Part shown: positions 30,573 through 60,359 of the stretch, one piece after another
How the letters are laid out: each line of letters opens with the position of its first letter
How positions within the stretch are numbered: position 1 is the stretch's first letter
Assembly (NCBI GenBank): GCA_003136395.1
Contig: PLEH01000283.1
Span: 5,208-69,207 of the forward strand
Source: Phenylobacterium sp.
Lineage (GTDB): Bacteria; Pseudomonadota; Alphaproteobacteria; Caulobacterales; Caulobacteraceae
Direction: 5' to 3'
Length of the DNA stretch: 64,000 nucleotides
Position numbers and translations under genes: made by a program
Notes under the pieces: model-generated
The model's database searches: none
Seen by the model: only the letters and a program-made list of their open reading frames with translations
What the model was told of the DNA's origin: nothing

Positions 30573-30619
30573 GGTCGGGAAATTCAGATGGCGGACGGAG
30601 CACGTCCGCAATGGGTCGA

Positions 30620-30774
30620 GGCTGTGTAAAAACTCAGCCGACGCGATTTCCGGCGCAACAGCTTGCCCGCAGGTGCTCGCTTGGAGCTCTTTGCCGCAAT
30701 AGATCGCGGCGCAATGCGATTTGAGCGGCGGGACGTTGCGTGAGATTCTCGCCAAGGCGAGTTTCTACACAGCC
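30620..30774. mobile_element. 155-bp MITE with IS1182-type ends
   Basis: TIRs GGCTGTGTAAAAACTC / GAGTTTCTACACAGCC (15/16); TCGA direct repeats at 30616-19 and 30775-78; no transposase. Confidence 0.8.
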
Positions 30775-30932
30775 TCGACCCTGAGCGGTCGTTAGCCTAC
30801 TCGAATGGCCGACAGGTCCTGCGCCGACGATCGCCAACGGCAAATGTCAAACAACGGCTAAGGTCGGTAGCATCCGTTCAGACTGACAGCGACCGGCCGA
30901 CTCGGCCGCCGGCGCCATTGTCACCCCGGAAT

Positions 30933-31682
30933 TCAGCGGGCCCGAGGAATCCGAACGTCCTGTTCCACCATGCCGGCATTGGGTGTCTTGGCATCGGTGG
31001 CCACGATCCGCAGCTTGTAGCGGCCGGGCGCGGTCGCGGGCAGCGCGGCCTCGTACTCGCTGGTCCGACCGGTGAACCGCATGGGCGCGTGGGCCAGGAT
31101 CCGGGGTCCTTTCATGAGCGTCGCCTCGATACGGTAGTTCGCAGCGTCCCAAAGGCCGCCGGCCTCGATCGGACAACCGCACATCGGGGTGACCTTCGCC
31201 GTGACCTGCAAGGTCCCGTCGGCGGCTGGCGCGGCGGCCGGTTCGATCACTAGACCCGGAAAGCTCAGCACCAGGCCGTCGCCGGTGACGTCGCGGCCCG
31301 GGATGACCCACAGGGTGGACGAGACGTGGATCGCGGCTCCCGGCTTGCCCATGGGTCCTACGCCGTCGGCGCGGACCAAGGTCGGCTGCCGAAGATCGAG
31401 GACCGCGTCGAAGCCGGCGGCGTCCTTGTCAGACAGCGCCTCGCCGCGCTGCCGCGGGGCGCGCATGATCCGCGGCGTATCGCCGGCGCCGCCCCGCGTA
31501 AGGCCCTTCGCGAGCAGGGCTCCGGTTCGCGCATCGGTCAGCGTGATCTCGACCCCGCCCATGTGATCTCCGATGAACTTGGCGTCCAACGCTTGGGCGC
31601 GGACCATCACGTGGGTCGGCTCCGCGAGGGCGGCGGGCGCCAGCAGGGCGAGGGCCGCAGCGAAGGTGAGAGACTTGATCAT
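30933..31682 (-). CDS. Secreted conserved hypothetical protein with MCGCP motif
   Basis: Signal peptide MIKSLTFAAALALLAPAALA; VRAQALDAKFIG; 8 nt downstream of pdo. Confidence 0.75.
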   Translation of the reverse strand: MIKSLTFAAALALLAPAALAEPTHVMVRAQALDAKFIGDHMGGVEITLTDARTGALLAKGLTRGGAGDTPRIMRAPRQRGEALSDKDAAGFDAVLDLRQPTLVRADGVGPMGKPGAAIHVSSTLWVIPGRDVTGDGLVLSFPGLVIEPAAAPAADGTLQVTAKVTPMCGCPIEAGGLWDAANYRIEATLMKGPRILAHAPMRFTGRTSEYEAALPATAPGRYKLRIVATDAKTPNAGMVEQDVRIPRAR

Positions 31683-31690
31683 GACGCTTA

Positions 31691-32656
31691 TCAGACGGTG
31701 TTGAGGGGAATCTTCAGGTAGCGGACGCCGTTGTCTTCCGGCTCGGGAAGATGGCCGCCGCGCATGTTCACCTGCACAGAGGGCAGGATCAGCCTTGGCA
31801 TGTCCAGGGTCCGGTCGCGCGCCTGGCGCAGGGCGACAAAGTCGGCCTCGCTGACGCCCTCATGCACATGAAGGTTTTCGCGCCGCTCGGCGCCAATGGT
31901 GGTCTCCCAGGCATAGGTGTCGCGGCCGGGCGCCTTGTAGTCGTGGCAGAGGAAAACGCGGGTCTTGTCGGGGAGCGCCAGCAGTCGCTGGATCGAGGTG
32001 TAGAGTGTCGCGGCGTCGCCGCCGGGGAAGTCGCAGCGGGCCGTGCCGTAGTCCGGCATGAACAGGGTGTCGCCGACGAACGCCGCGTCGCCGATGACAT
32101 AGGCCAGACAGGCCGGCGTGTGGCCCGGGACATGAAGGGCTATCGCCTGCAGGCCACCGATCGCGAAGCGCTCGCCGTCCTGGAAGAGGTGGTCGAACTG
32201 GCGCCCGTCACGGGCGAAGTCCGGGCCGGCGTTGAACAGCTTTCCGAAGGTGTCCTGCACCCGCACGATCTTCTCGCCGATCGCCAGGCGACCGCCCAGA
32301 GTAGCCTGAAGATAGGGCGCGGCCGACAGGTGGTCGGCGTGGGCGTGGGTCTCCAGCTGCCAGACCACGTCCAGCCCCTCGGCCTGGACATAGGCGAGGA
32401 CCGCGTCGGCCGACCCGTGCGCCGTGCGGCCCGAGGCCGGATCATAGTCGAGCACGCTGTCGATGATGGCGCAGGCCTTCGACGCCGGGTCGCGCACCAC
32501 ATAGGTTACGGTGAAGGTCGCCTCGTCGAAGAAGGCCTTGACCTGCGGGCGTTGGGCCGGGGCGGCGACTCCGGCGTCAACGATCGCCACGGCGCTTGCC
32601 ACGGCCGCATCGGATAGGGAGGTCGGATCGCACATCGGAGAACTCGCAGGTTGCAT
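31691..32656 (-). CDS. Persulfide dioxygenase (ETHE1/Blh-like metallo-beta-lactamase fold)
   Basis: LETHAHADHLSA, PGHTPAC, GDTLFMPDYGTARCDFPGG, LCHDY, PSVQVNMRGG. Confidence 0.9.
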   Translation of the reverse strand: MQPASSPMCDPTSLSDAAVASAVAIVDAGVAAPAQRPQVKAFFDEATFTVTYVVRDPASKACAIIDSVLDYDPASGRTAHGSADAVLAYVQAEGLDVVWQLETHAHADHLSAAPYLQATLGGRLAIGEKIVRVQDTFGKLFNAGPDFARDGRQFDHLFQDGERFAIGGLQAIALHVPGHTPACLAYVIGDAAFVGDTLFMPDYGTARCDFPGGDAATLYTSIQRLLALPDKTRVFLCHDYKAPGRDTYAWETTIGAERRENLHVHEGVSEADFVALRQARDRTLDMPRLILPSVQVNMRGGHLPEPEDNGVRYLKIPLNTV

Positions 32657-32671
32657 CGGCGATAAATAACT

Positions 32672-32693
32672 TATATGCGAATATACGCAGATA
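32672..32693. promoter_or_regulatory. Palindromic operator copy 1 (pdo / tauE)
   Basis: TATATGC-gaatatac-GCAGATA. Confidence 0.7.
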
Positions 32694-32717
32694 CAAGTCG
32701 GATTGACGTTCGCCCTC

Positions 32718-33491
32718 ATGTCCACGTTCACGATCGTCTCAGCCCTGATGAGCGGCGCCCTCGTCGGCGCGCTGCTCGGCCTGTTCGGCGGCGGCGGCTC
32801 TGTGCTGGCGACGCCGCTGCTGCTGTATGTCGTGGGCATTCGCGACCCTCACGTGGCGATCGGCACCTCCGCCGCCGCCGTGGCCGTGAACGCCGCGATG
32901 AATCTGGTCGGTCACGGCCGGGGCGGACGGGTGAAGTGGCCGTGCGCGACAGTGTTTGCGGGCGCGGGCCTACTCGGGTCCTTCCTGGGTTCAAGCCTCG
33001 CCAAGGCCGTCGACGGCCAGAGGCTGCTGCTGTTCTTCGCCTTCGCCATGGCGGCTATCGCGGTCTCCATGCTTCGCCGGCCCAAGTCGGAAGGCGATCC
33101 CGAAGTCCGCATCACCTGGCCCCTGATCCTGAAGCTGGCGCCGGTCGGCGTGCTCACGGGCCTCGCCGCCGGCTTCTTCGGCATCGGCGGCGGGTTCCTG
33201 ATCGTTCCCGGGCTGATGGCGGCCACGGGCATGACGCTGGCCAATGCCGCCGCCTCGTCGCTGCTCTCGGTGGCGTTGTTCGGCGCGGCGACCTCGCTGA
33301 ACTACGCGATCTCGGGTCTCGTCGATTGGCCGATCGCCGGGCTGTTCATTCTCGGAGGTCTTGCCGGCGGCGCCTTAGGTGTACGCGGCGCCGGCGCGCT
33401 CGCCGCCCGCGCGCTCCTGGCGCGGCGGCTCTTCGCGTCGCTGGTCCTCGCCGTGGCCGTCTATGTGGCGTGGAGGGCGACCCACGGATGA
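32718..33491 (+). CDS. TauE/SafE sulfite exporter family
   Basis: GLFGGGGSVLATP, AIGTS, GFFGIGGGFLIVP. Confidence 0.9.
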   Translation: MSTFTIVSALMSGALVGALLGLFGGGGSVLATPLLLYVVGIRDPHVAIGTSAAAVAVNAAMNLVGHGRGGRVKWPCATVFAGAGLLGSFLGSSLAKAVDGQRLLLFFAFAMAAIAVSMLRRPKSEGDPEVRITWPLILKLAPVGVLTGLAAGFFGIGGGFLIVPGLMAATGMTLANAAASSLLSVALFGAATSLNYAISGLVDWPIAGLFILGGLAGGALGVRGAGALAARALLARRLFASLVLAVAVYVAWRATHG

Positions 33492-34102
33492 CCGGCTCCG
33501 AAAACAGCTGGGACAGGCGCTACGCGCAGCCGGACTACCTTTTCGGTCTCGAGCCGAATGCGTTCCTCGTCCGACAGTCCGCCCATCTGAAGCCTGGATC
33601 GAAGGCCCTGGCTGTCGCCGATGGCGAAGGCCGCAATGGGGTCTGGCTGGCTCAGCAGGGCCTGTCCGTCCTGTCGATCGACAACTCCCCGGTCGGCCAA
33701 GCCAAGGCTCGGCGATTGGCTGAGTCGCGCGGCGTGACGATGGCGTTCGAAGAGGCGAATCTCGAAACCTGGTCCTGGCCCGAGGCCGCCTTCGATCTCG
33801 TGGCGGCGATCTTCATCCAGTTCGCGCCGCCCGCCCTGCGGGCGCGGATCTTCGATGGCCTGCAGGCCGCGCTCAAGCCGGGCGGCGTTCTTCTGCTGCA
33901 AGGCTACCGGCCCGAGCAGATCGCCTACGGCACGGGTGGGCCCGCGGCGCCGCAGAACCTCTACACGGAGCCCATGCTGAGGGCGGCTTTCGCCGGCATG
34001 GATATCCTCGAACTCCGGTCACATGACTCGCCCATCCACGAGGGCAAGGGCCACGACGGGGTCTCGGCGTTGATCGACCTGGTCGCCCGGAAGCATGCCT
34101 GA
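33488..34102 (+). CDS. Class I SAM-dependent methyltransferase
   Basis: WDRRY..FGLEPN, LAVADGEGRNGVWLA, LKPGG; ATGA overlap. Confidence 0.88.
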   Translation: MTGSENSWDRRYAQPDYLFGLEPNAFLVRQSAHLKPGSKALAVADGEGRNGVWLAQQGLSVLSIDNSPVGQAKARRLAESRGVTMAFEEANLETWSWPEAAFDLVAAIFIQFAPPALRARIFDGLQAALKPGGVLLLQGYRPEQIAYGTGGPAAPQNLYTEPMLRAAFAGMDILELRSHDSPIHEGKGHDGVSALIDLVARKHA

Positions 34103-38033: not shown

Positions 38034-38055
38034 TATTTGCGTATCTTAGCATATA
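38034..38055. promoter_or_regulatory. Palindromic operator copy 2 (cydDC / cydABX)
   Basis: TATTTGC-gtatctta-GCATATA. Confidence 0.7.
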
Positions 38056-45426: not shown

Positions 45427-45753
45427 CTACCTCGCGCGGTAGATGCCGCTGAGCGTCTCCAGCACCTGCACAGCAGCGGGATCGTCCAGGCGATAGTAGA
45501 TGGTCTGGCCTTCGCGGCGGGTGGCGACCACGCCCTCGGCGCGCATCTTGGCCAGATGCTGCGAGGCGGCCGACTGGGCCAGCTTGGCGTGGTCGGCGAG
45601 GTCTCCGACCGAGGTTTCGCCCTCAACCAGGCGGCACAGCAGCAGCAGTCTCTGTTCGCTCGCCAGGAGCTTGAGAAGGCGCGCTGCGGGACTAACGCAG
45701 CCTGCCAGGTCGGAGACGTCCTCGGTGACGACTTGGCTTGAGGTGGCGGTCAT
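45427..45753 (-). CDS. ArsR/SmtB regulator, BigR/SqrR-like, lacking the C-terminal Cys
   Basis: LKLLASEQRLLLLCRLVEGE, SQHLAKMR, TRREGQTIYY; ends GIYRAR. Confidence 0.85.
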   Translation of the reverse strand: MTATSSQVVTEDVSDLAGCVSPAARLLKLLASEQRLLLLCRLVEGETSVGDLADHAKLAQSAASQHLAKMRAEGVVATRREGQTIYYRLDDPAAVQVLETLSGIYRAR

Positions 45754-50425: not shown

Positions 50426-50453
50426 GCGGAGGACTCCTTGAGGGGGCGCGCGG

Positions 50454-50759
50454 TCAGGGGACCGCGCAGAACAGGCGGGACAGGGTCTCGACAACGGCGC
50501 GAGCCTGGCCGCCTTGCAGGCCGTAGTAGATGGTTTGGCCGTCGCGGCGGGCGGCGACCACGCCGTCCCGGCGCAGCAGACCCAGGTGCTGGGACGCCAG
50601 GCTTTCGCGCACGCCCAGCATCTCGGCGAGCGCGCCCACCGACTGCTCGCCGTCGAGCAGCGCGCAGACGATCATCAGCCGATGCGGGTTCGCCAGCGAC
50701 TTCAGCAAAGCGCAGGCGTCGTCGGCCGAGGCCTTCAGGGCGTGGGCTTGTAAATTCAT
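50454..50759 (-). CDS. BigR/SqrR-type persulfide-sensing ArsR repressor
   Basis: KSLANPHRLMIVCAL and C-terminal LFC (two-Cys signature); SQHL, RRDGQTIYY. Confidence 0.85.
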   Translation of the reverse strand: MNLQAHALKASADDACALLKSLANPHRLMIVCALLDGEQSVGALAEMLGVRESLASQHLGLLRRDGVVAARRDGQTIYYGLQGGQARAVVETLSRLFCAVP

Positions 50760-55847: not shown

Positions 55848-56756
55848 ATGGACGACCTCCGGCATGAGTTCTTCGCCATGGGCTCGGACTGCATCATCTG
55901 CTTGCAGGGGTGCTCGTCGTCAGCCGCCCAAGCGACCGCTCGAAGCGCCGAGGCCGAGGTTCGCCGGATCGAATTGAAATTCTCGCGCTACCGGACCGAC
56001 AGTGAGCTCTCACGGATAAACGCTGTGGCCGCAGTCGGGGGAGAAACGACTGTCGATGCCGAGACTAGAGGGTTGATCGATTTCGCCCAGGCCTGTCACC
56101 GTAGGAGTGACGGCGCTTTCGACATCACCTCGGGATTGTTGCGAGCGGCCTGGGATTTCAAGGGCGCGTCCCTACCAACCCAGTCCGTGCTTGATGGGCT
56201 GCTCCCGCGCATCGGCATGGGCAAGGTGAAGCTGTCCGACCAGGGCGTCGCTTTTGCGCACGCCGGCATGGAGCTGGACCTCGGTGGGTTGGGCAAGGAA
56301 TACGCCGCCGACCGCGCCGCCGAGATCTGTGCGGATCTCGGCGCGGAGCACGGCTTTGTCGACCTCGGCGGAGACATCCGAGTGGTCGGTCCGCAGCTGG
56401 ACGGTCAACCCTGGCGGATCGGCATTCGCGACCCGCTCGATCCGGCGTTGCTGGTGGCTGAGGTAGAACTTCACAGTGGCGCGCTGGCGACCAGCGGAGA
56501 CTATGAGCGCTTTATCGAGGTCGATGGCCGGCGGTATTGCCACATCCTGGACCCGCGGACCGGGTGGCCGCGCGCCGGACTGTCCTCGGTTACTGTGATC
56601 ACCGACCGCTGCCTAGTGGCGGGAAGCCTTGCGACCTCCGCCATGGTCATGGGAGCCGACGGCCCGGCCTGGCTTCAGAACCTGGGTGTGCGCCACATCC
56701 TGGTCGATGATCACGGCGTGCGCACAGGGACCGAGCCCCTCATCCTCAGGCCTTGA
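55848..56756 (+). CDS. apbE: FAD:protein FMN transferase (ApbE) copy 1
   Basis: AMGS, FDIT, LDLGGLGKEYAAD, ATSGDYER, HILDPRTG; no lipoprotein signal. Confidence 0.9.
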   Translation: MDDLRHEFFAMGSDCIICLQGCSSSAAQATARSAEAEVRRIELKFSRYRTDSELSRINAVAAVGGETTVDAETRGLIDFAQACHRRSDGAFDITSGLLRAAWDFKGASLPTQSVLDGLLPRIGMGKVKLSDQGVAFAHAGMELDLGGLGKEYAADRAAEICADLGAEHGFVDLGGDIRVVGPQLDGQPWRIGIRDPLDPALLVAEVELHSGALATSGDYERFIEVDGRRYCHILDPRTGWPRAGLSSVTVITDRCLVAGSLATSAMVMGADGPAWLQNLGVRHILVDDHGVRTGTEPLILRP

Positions 56757-57153
56757 TATCGATCGTCGGCCCAAACGGGGGGCCAAGGGCATTGAGCGCC
56801 TGGGTGCTCGCATCGACGCTGCCTGCTGGCGCCGCCGGAGCGGCGGGGTCGGCGCGAAGCGAGGCCATCAGGCCGGTCATCACCGACACGAAGTCGGATT
56901 TCGAGACCGTCCCGGATCCCGTAGGATCGAGCTGAGAGAAGAGCGCATCGACGCCCTGGTTCTGGAAGACCGCGGGCGGGTTCTTGGTCGCGAAGGCGTT
57001 GGCGAACTGGGACTTGTCGATGCTTCCGGTTCCGGCAGCGTCCATCGAATCAAATAGGTTCGACATCTTCTGCTGGGGCGGCGCGCCATAGCTGGCGCCG
57101 GACACGGCGTGCGGCATGCTGGAGCCGCCGAGGCTCGAAATGTCCATGCTCAT
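56746..57153 (-). CDS. EF-hand domain protein
   Basis: DAAGTGSIDKSQF and DPTGSGTVSKSDF loops. Confidence 0.78.
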   Translation of the reverse strand: MSMDISSLGGSSMPHAVSGASYGAPPQQKMSNLFDSMDAAGTGSIDKSQFANAFATKNPPAVFQNQGVDALFSQLDPTGSGTVSKSDFVSVMTGLMASLRADPAAPAAPAGSVDASTQALNALGPPFGPTIDIKA

Positions 57154-57321
57154 CGGGGTCTTCCCTTTCGGAGATTGATGAGGGATCCGAATCCGATCCC
57201 GAATAAGTCATTCAAAGTAAATCAATGACTAAGTTTTGGGTGATTCATGAGAATTCAAACCGACACAATTCTGAATTGAAGCCGGAATGCTTGGACCGGC
57301 TCCGCATCGGAGTCACGGATA

Positions 57322-58266
57322 CTATCGCTGCCACCACGCCACGACGCCTTCTGCTTCAAGGAAAGCTTCCGCGTCCGCGCCATGCAGCATGGCCAGTGTT
57401 GAGATCAGACCGGCCTCCATGCAGGTTGGCGCAGCCACAGTGACCGAGCGCGGCGGATCGCGAACAGGCCAGCCCGTCCTGGGATCGAGAATGTGCCCGA
57501 AGCGGACGCCGTCACGGAGCAGATAACGCCGGGCGTCGCCGCTGGTGGTCAGTGCGCCGCTGGCGAGATCCAGCATGGCCTCGGCGGTGTTTGCGGTCTC
57601 GACGGACTCAATCGCGACGCGCCAGCGTGCGCCGTTCGCCCTGGGCCCAGACACCCGCAGGTCGCCGCCAAAATTCACCAGGAACGGTGCGGGGCTGGCT
57701 GCCTGGAGTTTCAGCACCGTCGTGTCGACGGCGTATTCTTTTCCCAGGCCCCCGAAGTCGATTTCCATCCCTGACGGCAGGGTGATCTCTGGGCGGTGCC
57801 AAGTGACGCGGTCCCAGCCGACGAACGGCAGAACGGCGGCGACCTCGGTCTCGGCCGGCACGTGATCCGACTGGTCGAAGCGCCAAACGCGCCGCAGGAC
57901 GCCTGACGTAATGTCGAAGCGGCCTTCGCTTAGCGCATGGAACTGCGCCGCGCAGTCCAGTAGCTCGGCCGTTTCCGAGTCCACCGTGACCGGCTGGCCG
58001 TTGGAGGCGTTGATCCTGGAGAGCAGGCTGTCGGCGCGATAGCGGCTATACTTGTATTCAATGCGAAGCGCCTCGGCCTGCGCCATCCCGCCGAGGCGCG
58101 CGGCCAGTGCGCGATCCGTCGTGTCGATGCGCACCTCGCAAGGCGAGCCCATGGCGCGAAAGGCCAGGACAAAGCCCCCGTCCATGGGCTGCAGCCCATC
58201 GGGCGGCGGAGCAGGGAGAGGACGCTGCGCGGAGGCGGACATGATCAGTAGAAGGCCATGGTCCAA
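57322..58266 (-). CDS. apbE: FAD:protein FMN transferase (ApbE) copy 2
   Basis: AMGSPC, FDITSG, IDFGGLGKEYAVD, TTSGDARR, HILDPRTG; no lipoprotein signal. Confidence 0.9.
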   Translation of the reverse strand: MDHGLLLIMSASAQRPLPAPPPDGLQPMDGGFVLAFRAMGSPCEVRIDTTDRALAARLGGMAQAEALRIEYKYSRYRADSLLSRINASNGQPVTVDSETAELLDCAAQFHALSEGRFDITSGVLRRVWRFDQSDHVPAETEVAAVLPFVGWDRVTWHRPEITLPSGMEIDFGGLGKEYAVDTTVLKLQAASPAPFLVNFGGDLRVSGPRANGARWRVAIESVETANTAEAMLDLASGALTTSGDARRYLLRDGVRFGHILDPRTGWPVRDPPRSVTVAAPTCMEAGLISTLAMLHGADAEAFLEAEGVVAWWQR

Positions 58267-59681
58267 CCCGCGAACACGCTCACCGCCTGGACACCGCTGA
58301 AGAAGTTCTCGTGCGCCAATCCTGGCACGACGCCCCCGGGTTGGGCGGAGCCGGTCTGCTTGTAGTCCTGGACCTGGAAATAGACCTCGCTCGACGGAAT
58401 ATCGAACTCGCTATGCCCGGTGATCGGAATTCCGACTTTCAGACCGTAGGTTTGCGCTTGGAACTTTCCCAACCGGCTGTCAGAGCTGGCAAATGCCGGG
58501 AGCGGTTGGCCGGCGATCAGATAGTCACGGAAGAAGTTCGCCGCCGTCTGGCTGTAGTAGCGGGCCAGGGGCTCCACATATAGCCAAGAGACCACTGGTA
58601 CGCGCTCCGACAATTCCGCGGTGACGGAGTTGACGCCCCAGCTGTCATGATAGAATCGGACCGACGCATCCGTGACGGTCGGGCCCCAGGCGACCTTGTT
58701 GCCGAAATAAACGCTCTGCCTCAGGCGCGAGCCCGGCCGGTTCTCATAGAGATATTGCGACGGCGCGCCGGTGACGGAATCCACGACGGACAGCACCCGG
58801 TAGGGGTCGGTCTGGTACCCATTGGACTCGCCGACCGTATAATTCAGTTGCGCCAGCCAGTAGCGGTTGACCACCTGGGTCACACCCAGCACCGCGCTCG
58901 TGACGGTCTTGGTTCGGGCGGGACCCTTGGCGTCGGCGCTCATCACCGTGAAGGGCGTGGGCGTGCCAAAGAACGGATTCGACCGGTCGTATTCGAATTC
59001 AGCAGAGATCGAGGCCGTGGTGTTGTGCTGGTTGAAGTCCTGTGACAGGCCGGCGTTGCCCGAATAGGAGCGATAGTCGCGTTCAGTCGAAGCGCTTCCC
59101 CCGAAGGACAGACGCCCGCCGTCCCAAACAGGCGTGGCGTATCCCAGATCGACGGCCGTTCGGAGGTCCCTGAATCCGGCGTCGACGGGCAGGGTATTAG
59201 CGGGCGTCACATACTGTCGTGCAACGGTTCCTGTTCCAGGGATGGTGACCAGGGTGCTGCCGCCGGAAGAGCCAGTGACGGTCGCTGTGGTTCCCGGCGC
59301 ATGAGCAGGCGTGGTGAAAGTCTGCGGGCCCGTCCACGGTGCGGCGCCGTTAGGCGTGGCGCCGGTCAGGGTGTCGACGGTGAAACGGCCCGTCAGGACG
59401 GCGCCGCTGCTGCCGTTCACGGTCACGCTGACGACCGGTTCAGTCGCTTTCACCCGTCCGCCGGATTCGCTGTAGAAAAGGACCGCGGCATTGAGGCGGG
59501 TCAGACCCACATCGCTTTGGGTGTCGTCGTTGACGCCGACCCTCGGCGCGGCGGCGTCCGGCGGCGCGTCCGCCGCCGGGCTCAGCGCCTGCGCTTGCGC
59601 GCAGGTCGCCGCGAGGAGGTTGGCGGTCAGAAGACCGAGAGCCTGGGCGATGCGGCCCCGCCGCGGCGGGGTCAATTGCAT
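58245..59681 (-). CDS. DUF3570 outer-membrane beta-barrel protein
   Basis: Signal peptide, LFYSESGGRVKATEP, DTLTGATPNGA, YENRP, SSDSRLG, terminal F-Y. Confidence 0.8.
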   Translation of the reverse strand: MQLTPPRRGRIAQALGLLTANLLAATCAQAQALSPAADAPPDAAAPRVGVNDDTQSDVGLTRLNAAVLFYSESGGRVKATEPVVSVTVNGSSGAVLTGRFTVDTLTGATPNGAAPWTGPQTFTTPAHAPGTTATVTGSSGGSTLVTIPGTGTVARQYVTPANTLPVDAGFRDLRTAVDLGYATPVWDGGRLSFGGSASTERDYRSYSGNAGLSQDFNQHNTTASISAEFEYDRSNPFFGTPTPFTVMSADAKGPARTKTVTSAVLGVTQVVNRYWLAQLNYTVGESNGYQTDPYRVLSVVDSVTGAPSQYLYENRPGSRLRQSVYFGNKVAWGPTVTDASVRFYHDSWGVNSVTAELSERVPVVSWLYVEPLARYYSQTAANFFRDYLIAGQPLPAFASSDSRLGKFQAQTYGLKVGIPITGHSEFDIPSSEVYFQVQDYKQTGSAQPGGVVPGLAHENFFSGVQAVSVFAGWTMAFY

Positions 59682-59923
59682 CCGCAACCGCCGCCGACGA
59701 AGCTGCGGCCGCCGCTCGCGCCCTCTTTGCTGAAGTAGCTGTGCTCCAGCGCGGCCATCAGGTCGGGGTGGGTGTTCAGCTGCATCGACTTGCGGGCCAT
59801 CAGGTCGTGGTCCCAGGCCGCTGGCCCGACGCTGGCGCAGGCGCTGAGAATCCCGCCGACGCACAACAGGGCAATGCCCAGGCCGGCGCGTGCGCGCGCC
59901 CGGCGGCGGCCGTCATTTTGCAT
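59672..59923 (-). CDS. DUF4266 lipoprotein
   Basis: Lipobox LSAC; YFSKEGASGG..GGGCGCN. Confidence 0.87.
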   Translation of the reverse strand: MQNDGRRRARARAGLGIALLCVGGILSACASVGPAAWDHDLMARKSMQLNTHPDLMAALEHSYFSKEGASGGRSFVGGGCGCN

Positions 59924-60359
59924 TGAGAAGCTCCGAGATATGGGCCTCGTAGAGAGGCATTTGGTCTGGGAAGAAGCCGCTGTGGACGTAGCGGACGCGG
60001 CCATCGGCGCCGATCACCACGGAGGTCGGCATGGCTTTCACATTGAAGGTCCGGGCGATGCCGCCGGTGGTGTCGTAGACGATGGGAAGGTTGCTGCCGG
60101 CCTCACGCAGGAAGGCGTCGGCCTTGGTGCGGTCATGGTCGACGTTGACCGCCAGCAGAACGAAGTTGCGGCCCGCGTAGTAGCTCTGCAGCTTCTCGAG
60201 GAAGGGGAACGAGAGTTTGCAGGGCGCACACCAGGACGCCCAGAAGTCGAGGTAGACGACCTTGCCGTGGTACTGACTCAGGTCGAGAGCGGCCGAAGGC
60301 GCTGCATGTGCGACATGCCCCCCGACGGAAACCATCGCGATCACCGTAACTAAGGCCAT
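59913..60359 (-). CDS. TlpA-family disulfide reductase
   Basis: GKVVYLDFWASWCAPC, MPTSVVI. Confidence 0.9.
   Translation of the reverse strand: MALVTVIAMVSVGGHVAHAAPSAALDLSQYHGKVVYLDFWASWCAPCKLSFPFLEKLQSYYAGRNFVLLAVNVDHDRTKADAFLREAGSNLPIVYDTTGGIARTFNVKAMPTSVVIGADGRVRYVHSGFFPDQMPLYEAHISELLNAK

Follow-up and report, generated by a model that had tools for sequence, protein, structure and literature searches.

The locus analysed here raises the question of what an exported protein with only two cysteines does next to a cytoplasmic persulfide dioxygenase (PDO). The protein, whose cysteines form a Cys-Gly-Cys motif, is referred to below as the CGC protein, and its gene lies in a 64,000-nucleotide stretch of a Phenylobacterium sp. 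contig (PLEH01000283.1), which is referred to as the window. An earlier note on this DNA had described an uncharacterised periplasmic protein, co-transcribed with PDO, and had put it forward as a carrier of sulfane sulfur or a metal-binding partner.

The gene and its operon

The following features were assigned around the gene.

30933..31682, minus strand: gene of the exported CGC protein, 249 amino acids plus stop (open reading frame list and translation; homologue clusters, see below)
31623..31682, minus strand: predicted signal peptide, residues 1–20, with M-I-K, a hydrophobic core and an A-L-A cleavage motif (sequence reading; modelled N-terminal helix 2–19)
31173..31181, minus strand: codons of C168-G169-C170, the family signature, in the B-C loop of predicted domain 2 (sequence; conservation in homologues)
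31683..31690, minus strand: 8-nt spacer from the PDO stop to the CGC-protein start (sequence)
31691..32656, minus strand: predicted PDO, a Blh-type dioxygenase domain without the rhodanese half (Pfam Lactamase_B, NCBIfam NF040641, intergenic sequence)
32672..32693, no strand: putative SqrR-type operator copy 1, a 22-bp palindrome between the divergent PDO and TauE genes (DNA pattern search)
32703..33491, plus strand: TauE/SafE sulfite exporter, in divergent orientation to PDO-CGC (Pfam PF01925, E of 6e-46)
45439..45753, minus strand: ArsR-family regulator of the HlyU/YgaV/SqrR/BigR group (tblastn, 71% identity to the ArsR of locus L018)

Homologues at 28–93% identity in hundreds of genomes and metagenomes indicate that the CGC reading frame is a real gene. 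Its predicted product begins with M-I-K, followed by 16 hydrophobic residues ending in A-L-A and then by E-P. Read from the sequence, this N-terminus has the form of a classical signal peptide of the Sec/SPase I type, and neither a twin arginine nor a lipobox Cys is seen in it. The hydrophobic segment is kept across the homologues of a 62-member alignment, in keeping with the clean signal peptide claimed by the earlier note. The count of cysteines given there is also exact: the protein has two, C168 and C170, both within M-C-G-C-P. Likewise, the PDO stop codon (31691-31693) and the ATG of the CGC gene (31680-31682) are separated by the 8 nt previously reported. No strong Shine-Dalgarno sequence was seen on inspection of this spacer, so translation of the CGC gene is likely to be coupled to that of PDO.

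The best NCBIfam match of the PDO is NF040641 (Blh), which it matches over the dioxygenase half with an E-value of 3e-113; the absent rhodanese half keeps this match below the cut-off. The PDO start is likely to be the ATG at 32656, whereas an alternative longer reading frame of 382 residues would run through the operator. The predicted operator copy 1 is AT-rich and is located 16 nt upstream of this likely start, which places the PDO-CGC pair downstream of it, as the earlier note had described. A second copy is present at 38034-38055, giving a window total of two where none is expected by chance. Operator-like sites are also found upstream of PDO in seven homologous loci (L048, L050, L052-L055 and L058), and the operon link to PDO is shared by a whole clade of Caulobacter and Phenylobacterium, in which this operator is present as well.

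The reference used in the tblastn search, the ArsR of L018, adjoins TauE-PDO-CGC in its own locus. A further ArsR regulator of the SqrR/BigR group is encoded in the window at 50445-50738, and the L071 orthologue of the regulator at 45439..45753 matches the structures of SqrR (PDB entries 6O8K/13CT) and BigR (3PQJ) with E-values of 1e-15 to 1e-17. By these sequence relationships, the ArsR protein encoded at 45439..45753 is the probable repressor acting at the putative operator. A DsbA-like gene and CydDC are present on the same island as the CGC gene.

The BigR-Blh operon of Xylella and Agrobacterium and the SqrR regulon of Rhodobacter capsulatus combine an ArsR repressor that senses persulfide with Blh/PDO and TauE-like membrane proteins. 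Like these systems, the window has an ArsR regulator of the SqrR/BigR/YgaV/HlyU group and a palindromic operator, together with genes for a Blh-type dioxygenase and, in divergent orientation, TauE. In contrast to Blh, the PDO lacks the rhodanese half, and we know of no exported CGC protein with two Ig domains in the operons of this kind described so far. To judge from its sequence, the locus is a BigR-Blh/SqrR-type operon with an extra, facultative exported member.

A conserved and unannotated protein family

An exhaustive HMMER search assigned 559 clusters at 50% identity to the CGC family (E ≤ 1e-3), 122 of them with E ≤ 1e-30, and the clusters span at least seven phyla. Among 185,579 species genomes, a pattern scan built on an alignment of 12 CGC sequences picked out 365 relatives. 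The alphaproteobacterial carriers comprise Caulobacter, Phenylobacterium, Hyphomicrobiaceae, Sphingomonadales and Parvibaculum; the others belong to the Gammaproteobacteria, Balneolota, Bacteroidota, Ignavibacteriota, Acidobacteriota, Nitrospirota and Thermodesulfobacteriota. The distribution is patchy, with the gene present in 15 of 200 sampled genomes of Caulobacteraceae and 6 of 401 sampled genomes of Pseudomonadota.

Conservation was mapped on an alignment of 62 diverse members that are 28–50% identical to the query. C168, G169 and C170 are each at least 90% conserved, and the CxC motif is kept in 61 of the 62 homologues, down to 28% identity, so that the motif passes the conservation check that the earlier note had proposed for it. 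Extra cysteines outside the signal peptide are absent in most homologues. W178 is invariant, and the other conserved positions are K35 (in D-A-K-F-I-G), G64, G67 and T69 (in G-x-T-G-D-T), P128-G129 and N235-x-G237. At residue 167, next to the motif, M, L, I, V, A and G all occur, and the 62 aligned sequences show neither a conserved His nor a conserved Met as a ligand.

The CGC protein matches no family in Pfam (E ≤ 0.1) or NCBIfam. Searching the 62 homologues against Pfam at E ≤ 1 (25 families listed) gave scattered weak matches to Ig domains, none of them meaningful, the look-alikes including Moricin, Big_6, Gmad2 and YtkA. A sequence-profile search of the PDB with the family returned only noise at E > 0.09, and the ESM Atlas returned only the unnamed clusters of the protein itself, with no common Pfam family. 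A DUF4198/nickel-uptake label (PF10670), carried over from UniRef (a Caulobacter K31 homologue) and the ESM Atlas, was rejected for want of support in Pfam, as PF10670 does not figure in the list of 25 families obtained with the 62 homologues. Literature searches found no paper or experiment on any member of the family, and a paper on DMS in Methylophaga (PMC6548844) does not mention it. Sequence comparison places the CGC protein in a conserved, unannotated family of undescribed function, and the label 'uncharacterised' given to it earlier is apt.

In two representatives of the family the module is fused to a PF00144 serine hydrolase, with the domains in opposite order; one of these two fusions occurs on five contigs. 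Both were found through the representative search only; a search for longer, fused forms starting from the CGC query returned none.

Predicted structure

The AlphaFold2 model of the CGC protein, computed from the alignment of CGC homologues, has a mean pLDDT of 96.3 and a pTM of 0.89 and comprises two seven-stranded β-sandwiches.

31260..31622, minus strand: domain 1, residues 21–141, modelled as a seven-stranded Ig-like sandwich (AlphaFold2 model)
30936..31259, minus strand: domain 2, residues 142–249, modelled as an FnIII-like sandwich (AlphaFold2 model; FnIII/Ig structural matches)

The mature periplasmic form is best explained as a protein of 229 residues with an Ig-like and an FnIII-like domain. 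Domain 1 carries the conserved loops D-A-K-F-I-G (residues 33–38) and G-x-T-G-D-T (residues 64–69), and domain 2 carries the CGC loop, W178-D179 and N235-x-G237. In the strand order of the model, the CGC motif lies in the B-C loop of domain 2, with N235 and G237 in the F-G loop. The B-C and F-G loops of FnIII domains sit at the N-terminal end of the domain, and by strand topology the conserved A-B and C-C' loops of domain 1 are located at its C-terminal end, facing domain 2. Since the CGC and F-G loops would face domain 1 and the A-B and C-C' loops would face domain 2, the conserved residues of both domains are predicted to converge on the interdomain elbow, a position derived from the strand topology.

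Foldseek against the PDB and two VIA-align searches returned generic Ig/FnIII matches, tied at Z-scores of about 9–10, which include cytokine-receptor modules, Ig domains of GH2 enzymes and an S-layer protein. Cox11, SoxY/Z, nDsbD and PCuAC are absent among the listed fold matches, which are tied generic Ig matches. Structure prediction, another of the checks proposed in the earlier note, yields a confident two-domain model but one whose fold is so common that it is uninformative on function.

The overall architecture is similar to that of the cytokine-receptor homology module (EpoR, PRLR and domains D2-D3 of gp130), in having two tandem FnIII-type domains that meet at an elbow (whole-length Foldseek E of about 1e-4; Z-scores of 9.6–10.1 for domain 2). 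Cytokine receptors bind their ligand at the interdomain elbow, and the conserved loops of the CGC protein map to the positions that form this site. The resemblance is purely architectural (8–16% identity and a TM-score of about 0.3) and implies no evolutionary or functional relation.

The nearest functional analogies are nDsbD, SoxYZ and Cox11, none of which is related in sequence to the CGC protein. nDsbD (PF11412) is a periplasmic Ig-like sandwich that has as its only chemistry a redox-active Cys pair in the loops at one end, and is a precedent for a dithiol relay on an Ig fold. It differs from the CGC protein in the spacing of its cysteines (CxxxxxC, as against CxC); moreover, the CGC protein has two domains and no known source of electrons in the membrane. 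There is no Pfam match to nDsbD, which is also absent among the best 50 structural matches, all of them tied generic Ig matches. SoxYZ is, like the CGC protein, a periplasmic pair of Ig-like sandwiches, which carries sulfur species including S-sulfonate on a Cys. However, the SoxY Cys is located in a C-terminal GGCGG arm, whereas the CGC motif is internal and the C-terminus of the CGC protein is unrelated and without Cys. Membership of the SoxY (PF13501) or SoxZ (PF08770) families was rejected on the lack of a Pfam match and of a C-terminal Cys.

Cox11/CtaG (PF04442) shares with the CGC protein the combination of an Ig-like fold and a Cys-x-Cys motif outside the cytoplasm. Unlike Cox11, which is a membrane-anchored single domain, the CGC protein is predicted to be soluble and to have two domains, and its gene has no link to cytochrome oxidase genes. 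Homology was rejected: aligning the family alignment with the Cox11 of the same genome by hhalign gave a probability of 0.2% and an E-value of 0.25, and there is no Pfam match.

Gene neighbourhoods across genomes

Neighbourhoods were compared for the best 80 of the 365 genome relatives. In a Pfam census of the 147 immediate neighbours at these 80 loci, the metallo-β-lactamase (MBL)/PDO family is by far the commonest (15), followed by short-chain dehydrogenases (6), aldo-keto reductases (AKR) and methyltransferases (5 each). PDO lies within 5 kb of the CGC gene in 16 of the 80 loci and is directly adjacent to it on the same strand in 13.

The gene order differs between lineages (arrowheads give the direction of transcription). 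It is TauE< / PDO> CGC> in Caulobacter and Phenylobacterium (the seven loci with operator-like sites), with PDO-CGC spacers of about 8–15 nt as estimated from match coordinates, and TauE< ArsR< / PDO> CGC> in L103, where the spacer is about 65 nt. The order AKR> CGC> PDO> is found in Hyphomicrobiaceae (L091, L092, L110 and L115), PDO< / ArsR> rhodanese> TauE> CGC> in a Sphingomonas (L102), and CGC> / TauE< sulfurtransferase-SQR< PDO< in L086, where the sulfurtransferase and SQR are fused. Only 1 of the first 14 Caulobacteraceae loci repeats the TauE-PDO-CGC layout. On a maximum-likelihood tree of the 80 CGC proteins, the presence of PDO requires 8 parsimony changes, at least 5 of them forced by well-supported branches, and the linkage is therefore not one inherited block.

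Other sulfur genes recur beside the CGC gene. An ArsR gene of the SqrR/BigR/YgaV type lies directly upstream of it in L067 and L071. Genes of the SorA/SorB sulfite dehydrogenase are divergent from it in L098 (NCBIfam matches), and genes that cluster with SorA/SorB stand beside it in a second Terriglobia locus (L106) and in a gammaproteobacterial locus (L100). A TauD-like taurine dioxygenase is encoded directly upstream in L100, and the gene of a TsdA-like cytochrome adjoins the CGC gene in L106. Sulfite is released by PDO and TauD, exported by TauE and oxidised in the periplasm by SorAB, which makes it the common denominator of these partners.

Recognisable sulfur genes are present at about 22–24 of the 80 loci. 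The Nitrospirota locus L127 was left uncounted, as its neighbouring ArsR does not clearly belong to the SqrR group. The earlier note would have counted a majority of homologues outside sulfur clusters as a refutation, and this is the pattern seen: at about 70% of the 80 loci no sulfur gene is recognisable close to the CGC gene, and what surrounds it there is specific to the lineage. A PDO match (E ≤ 1e-60) is present in 8 of the 15 CGC-carrying Caulobacteraceae genomes, as against 60 of the 185 others, which is a weak difference, the genomes being related; the remaining 7 carriers have no PDO match at this threshold. The complete genome G024 has ArsR>CGC and lacks a PDO match, and several close PDO orthologues have no adjoining CGC gene. 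The link between the CGC gene and sulfur genes centred on sulfite goes far beyond chance, yet it is not obligatory, and the CGC protein is a facultative accessory rather than a core member of the pathway.

Genes of thiol redox chemistry are found near some homologues. In three Methyloceanibacter loci the gene immediately upstream encodes a YkuD L,D-transpeptidase, and such genes are also found near the CGC gene in L078, L083 and L130. The distant homologue P0210 is preceded, at a distance of 4 nt, by the gene of an exported nDsbD-like protein that has the typical pair of cysteines. Other homologues are flanked by genes of a 1-Cys Prx (without a signal peptide in L038 and L087), OsmC, an AhpD-like CMD, or a TlpA-DUF4266-DUF3570-ApbE cluster. 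Together, the flanking redox genes and the YkuD and nDsbD leads point to a more general thiol redox chemistry of the envelope, in which the rival substrate would be a damaged protein thiol.

Proposed function

The reading that we favour, with a probability of roughly 0.4, is that the CGC protein is a periplasmic acceptor of reactive sulfur. Its gene is the second in a two-gene operon with PDO, which would be repressed via the putative SqrR-type operator, and the protein would act in the periplasm on reactive sulfur produced by the island. To judge from the gene neighbours, the likeliest species would be sulfite, made by PDO and exported by the divergent TauE. The Cys-Gly-Cys pair, which would sit at the interdomain elbow with Lys, Asp, Thr, Trp and Asn as its conserved neighbours, may cycle between a dithiol and a strained disulfide and capture sulfite as Cys-S-sulfonate, or sulfane sulfur as persulfide. 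The captured species would be buffered or handed on, sparing periplasmic disulfides and thiols. It is in this form that we infer the chemistry, the substrate and the partner proteins. Among the points in favour of this reading are also thiol-redox leads, namely the nDsbD-like gene upstream of P0210 and the DsbA-like gene and CydDC of the island.

The sulfane-sulfur carrier of the earlier note survives in part: the recurrent linkage to sulfur genes in unrelated lineages speaks for a sulfur carrier, whereas the theme of the neighbours (PDO, TauD, TauE and SorAB) is sulfite. Against an acceptor of reactive sulfur stand the roughly 70% of the 80 loci outside sulfur clusters and the carriers without a PDO match. 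Moreover, a disulfide binds sulfite reversibly, the proposed relay lacks a defined acceptor downstream, and SoxY was not found in the host genome (92% complete).

A more far-reaching version, which we consider doubtful, is that the CGC protein founds a new periplasmic sulfur-relay family with an Ig fold and a Cys-x-Cys motif. Sulfite (or sulfane sulfur) from the cytoplasmic PDO or TauD would arrive through TauE and would be passed to SorAB-type oxidation or detoxified. If true, such a relay would be an unrecognised periplasmic arm of heterotrophic sulfide oxidation, analogous to SoxYZ in its chemistry and unrelated to it. The SQR-PDO-rhodanese pathway is described as cytoplasmic or membrane-bound and as ending in the export of sulfite or thiosulfate, and to our knowledge the periplasmic fate of sulfite in bacteria without Sox is poorly defined. 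With a Cys-Gly-Cys that looks reactive and the repeated company of PDO, TauE, TauD and SorAB, the CGC protein is a concrete candidate for a periplasmic sulfite step, and it provides a first functional clue to an unannotated family that numbers several hundred sequence clusters. In the periplasm, it may supply a part that has been missing from bacterial sulfide detoxification.

The alternative that survives best, although we hold it to be unlikely, is that the protein guards the thiols of other periplasmic proteins. The CGC motif would then act as a thiol-disulfide oxidoreductase, comparable in function to DsbG/DsbC supplied by DsbD, and remove sulfenic, persulfide or S-sulfonate modifications from envelope enzymes with a single Cys, such as L,D-transpeptidases. 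Its recruitment to sulfur islands would be due to the damage that sulfide and sulfite do to thiols and disulfides of the periplasm. Such a role accounts for the majority of homologues that stand outside sulfur clusters, and the fusion of the module to PF00144 serine hydrolases in two domain orders is in its favour, as are the nDsbD-like gene upstream of P0210, the YkuD genes in and beyond Methyloceanibacter, and the OsmC, 1-Cys Prx, AhpD-like CMD and TlpA genes that adjoin some homologues. However, L,D-transpeptidase genes are numerous in Alphaproteobacteria, which weakens their adjacency in three lineages, the nDsbD lead comes from one lineage, and the Prx adjoining L038 and L087, having no signal peptide, is cytoplasmic. 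In addition, the predicted fold is not thioredoxin-like, and the sole strongly recurrent neighbour of the family is PDO.

Binding or chaperoning of a thiophilic metal in the periplasm, likeliest Cu(I), by the CxC thiolates, perhaps at a dimer interface, appears quite improbable. Cox11 holds copper with a CFCF motif on an Ig-like fold, and the CGC protein parallels it in fold and motif. Domain 2 also weakly resembles the copper protein CrdA (Z-score of 9.2, tied with dozens of unrelated Ig domains), YtkA-like domains are among the weak Pfam look-alikes, and RND pumps are encoded near some loci. These points are set against the absence of a conserved His or Met, the variability of residue 167, the hhalign result with the Cox11 of the same genome, and the absence of any recurrent copper-homeostasis gene from the 147-neighbour census. 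Moreover, the recurrent partners PDO and TauD are cytoplasmic and beyond the reach of a periplasmic chaperone. With neither supporting gene context nor a conserved His or Met ligand, the metal-binding partner suggested by the earlier note has little in its favour.

It is equally improbable that the protein is a non-catalytic binding or scaffolding module of the envelope, with a structural CGC motif and a gene that is merely carried along with PDO when sulfide islands move. Such a role would suit the FnIII/Ig folds, which serve generically for binding, and the highly variable gene neighbourhood, but a Cys-x-Cys disulfide is strained and rarely structural, and CxC is the best-conserved feature of the family. 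Linkage to PDO, TauE, SorAB or TauD is found in at least 5–9 separate lineages and in different gene orders, for which hitch-hiking on one island is inadequate.

Boundaries of the PDO-CGC pair in the window

The immediate surroundings of the gene for the exported Cys-Gly-Cys protein (CGC gene) and of the persulfide dioxygenase gene (PDO) 5' of it contain the following features.

30602-30792, large inverted repeat inside the 360-bp gap between the CGC gene and a convergent rhodanese gene
30637-30654, minus strand, weak terminator-like hairpin (n=1)
31691-32839, longest ORF of PDO (382 aa)
33491-34102, SAM-dependent methyltransferase gene (203 aa), after the sulfite exporter gene TauE

The longest PDO frame crosses the 22-bp operator and overlaps the start of TauE; the start codon is likely the ATG at 32656, giving a 321-aa product, or the ATG at 32635. 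On the 3' side of the CGC gene, the inverted repeat has 34-nt arms, 85% complementary and spaced 123 nt apart, and may either terminate transcription in both directions or represent a small repeat element.

The methyltransferase may be part of the same module as the CGC gene. Its orthologues in three homologous loci, with 74–79% identity, are divergently oriented, adjoining the CGC gene in L051 and L056, and the PDO-CGC pair in L058.

Other partners of CGC homologues

At L100:7114-8714, in a gammaproteobacterial metagenome-assembled genome (MAG), a TauD-type taurine dioxygenase gene is directly followed by the CGC gene. Divergent from these two lie genes clustering with SorA and SorB, the periplasmic sulfite dehydrogenase, of locus L098. 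The arrangement would amount to one pair that produces and oxidises sulfite and lacks PDO.

In L043:167-1445, an exported nDsbD-like protein of 167 aa, with a Cys-x5-Cys motif close to its C-terminus, is encoded 4 nt before the start of the gene for the CGC homologue P0210. On a metagenome contig (L038:2008-6765), a TlpA-DUF4266-DUF3570-ApbE cluster and a 1-Cys peroxiredoxin gene precede the gene for homologue P0125. A cluster of this TlpA type is also present on the island of the window (55848-60359), approximately 25 kb from the CGC gene.

The CGC module is also fused to a PF00144 serine β-lactamase-like hydrolase in P0141 (L129:4001-6043) and P0177 (L130:4001-6130), with both domain orders represented. 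P0177 is found on five contigs and is followed on its 3' side by genes for a GT4 glycosyltransferase and a YkuD L,D-transpeptidase.

Decayed loci

Three loci, L064, L015/L017 (genome G166) and L049, look decayed. In Caulobacter sp. DWR3-1-2, both the PDO and CGC ORFs are truncated, and in G166 the CGC gene is broken up over two frames that overlap. A second CGC copy in one MAG has only a C-terminal remnant of PDO before it.
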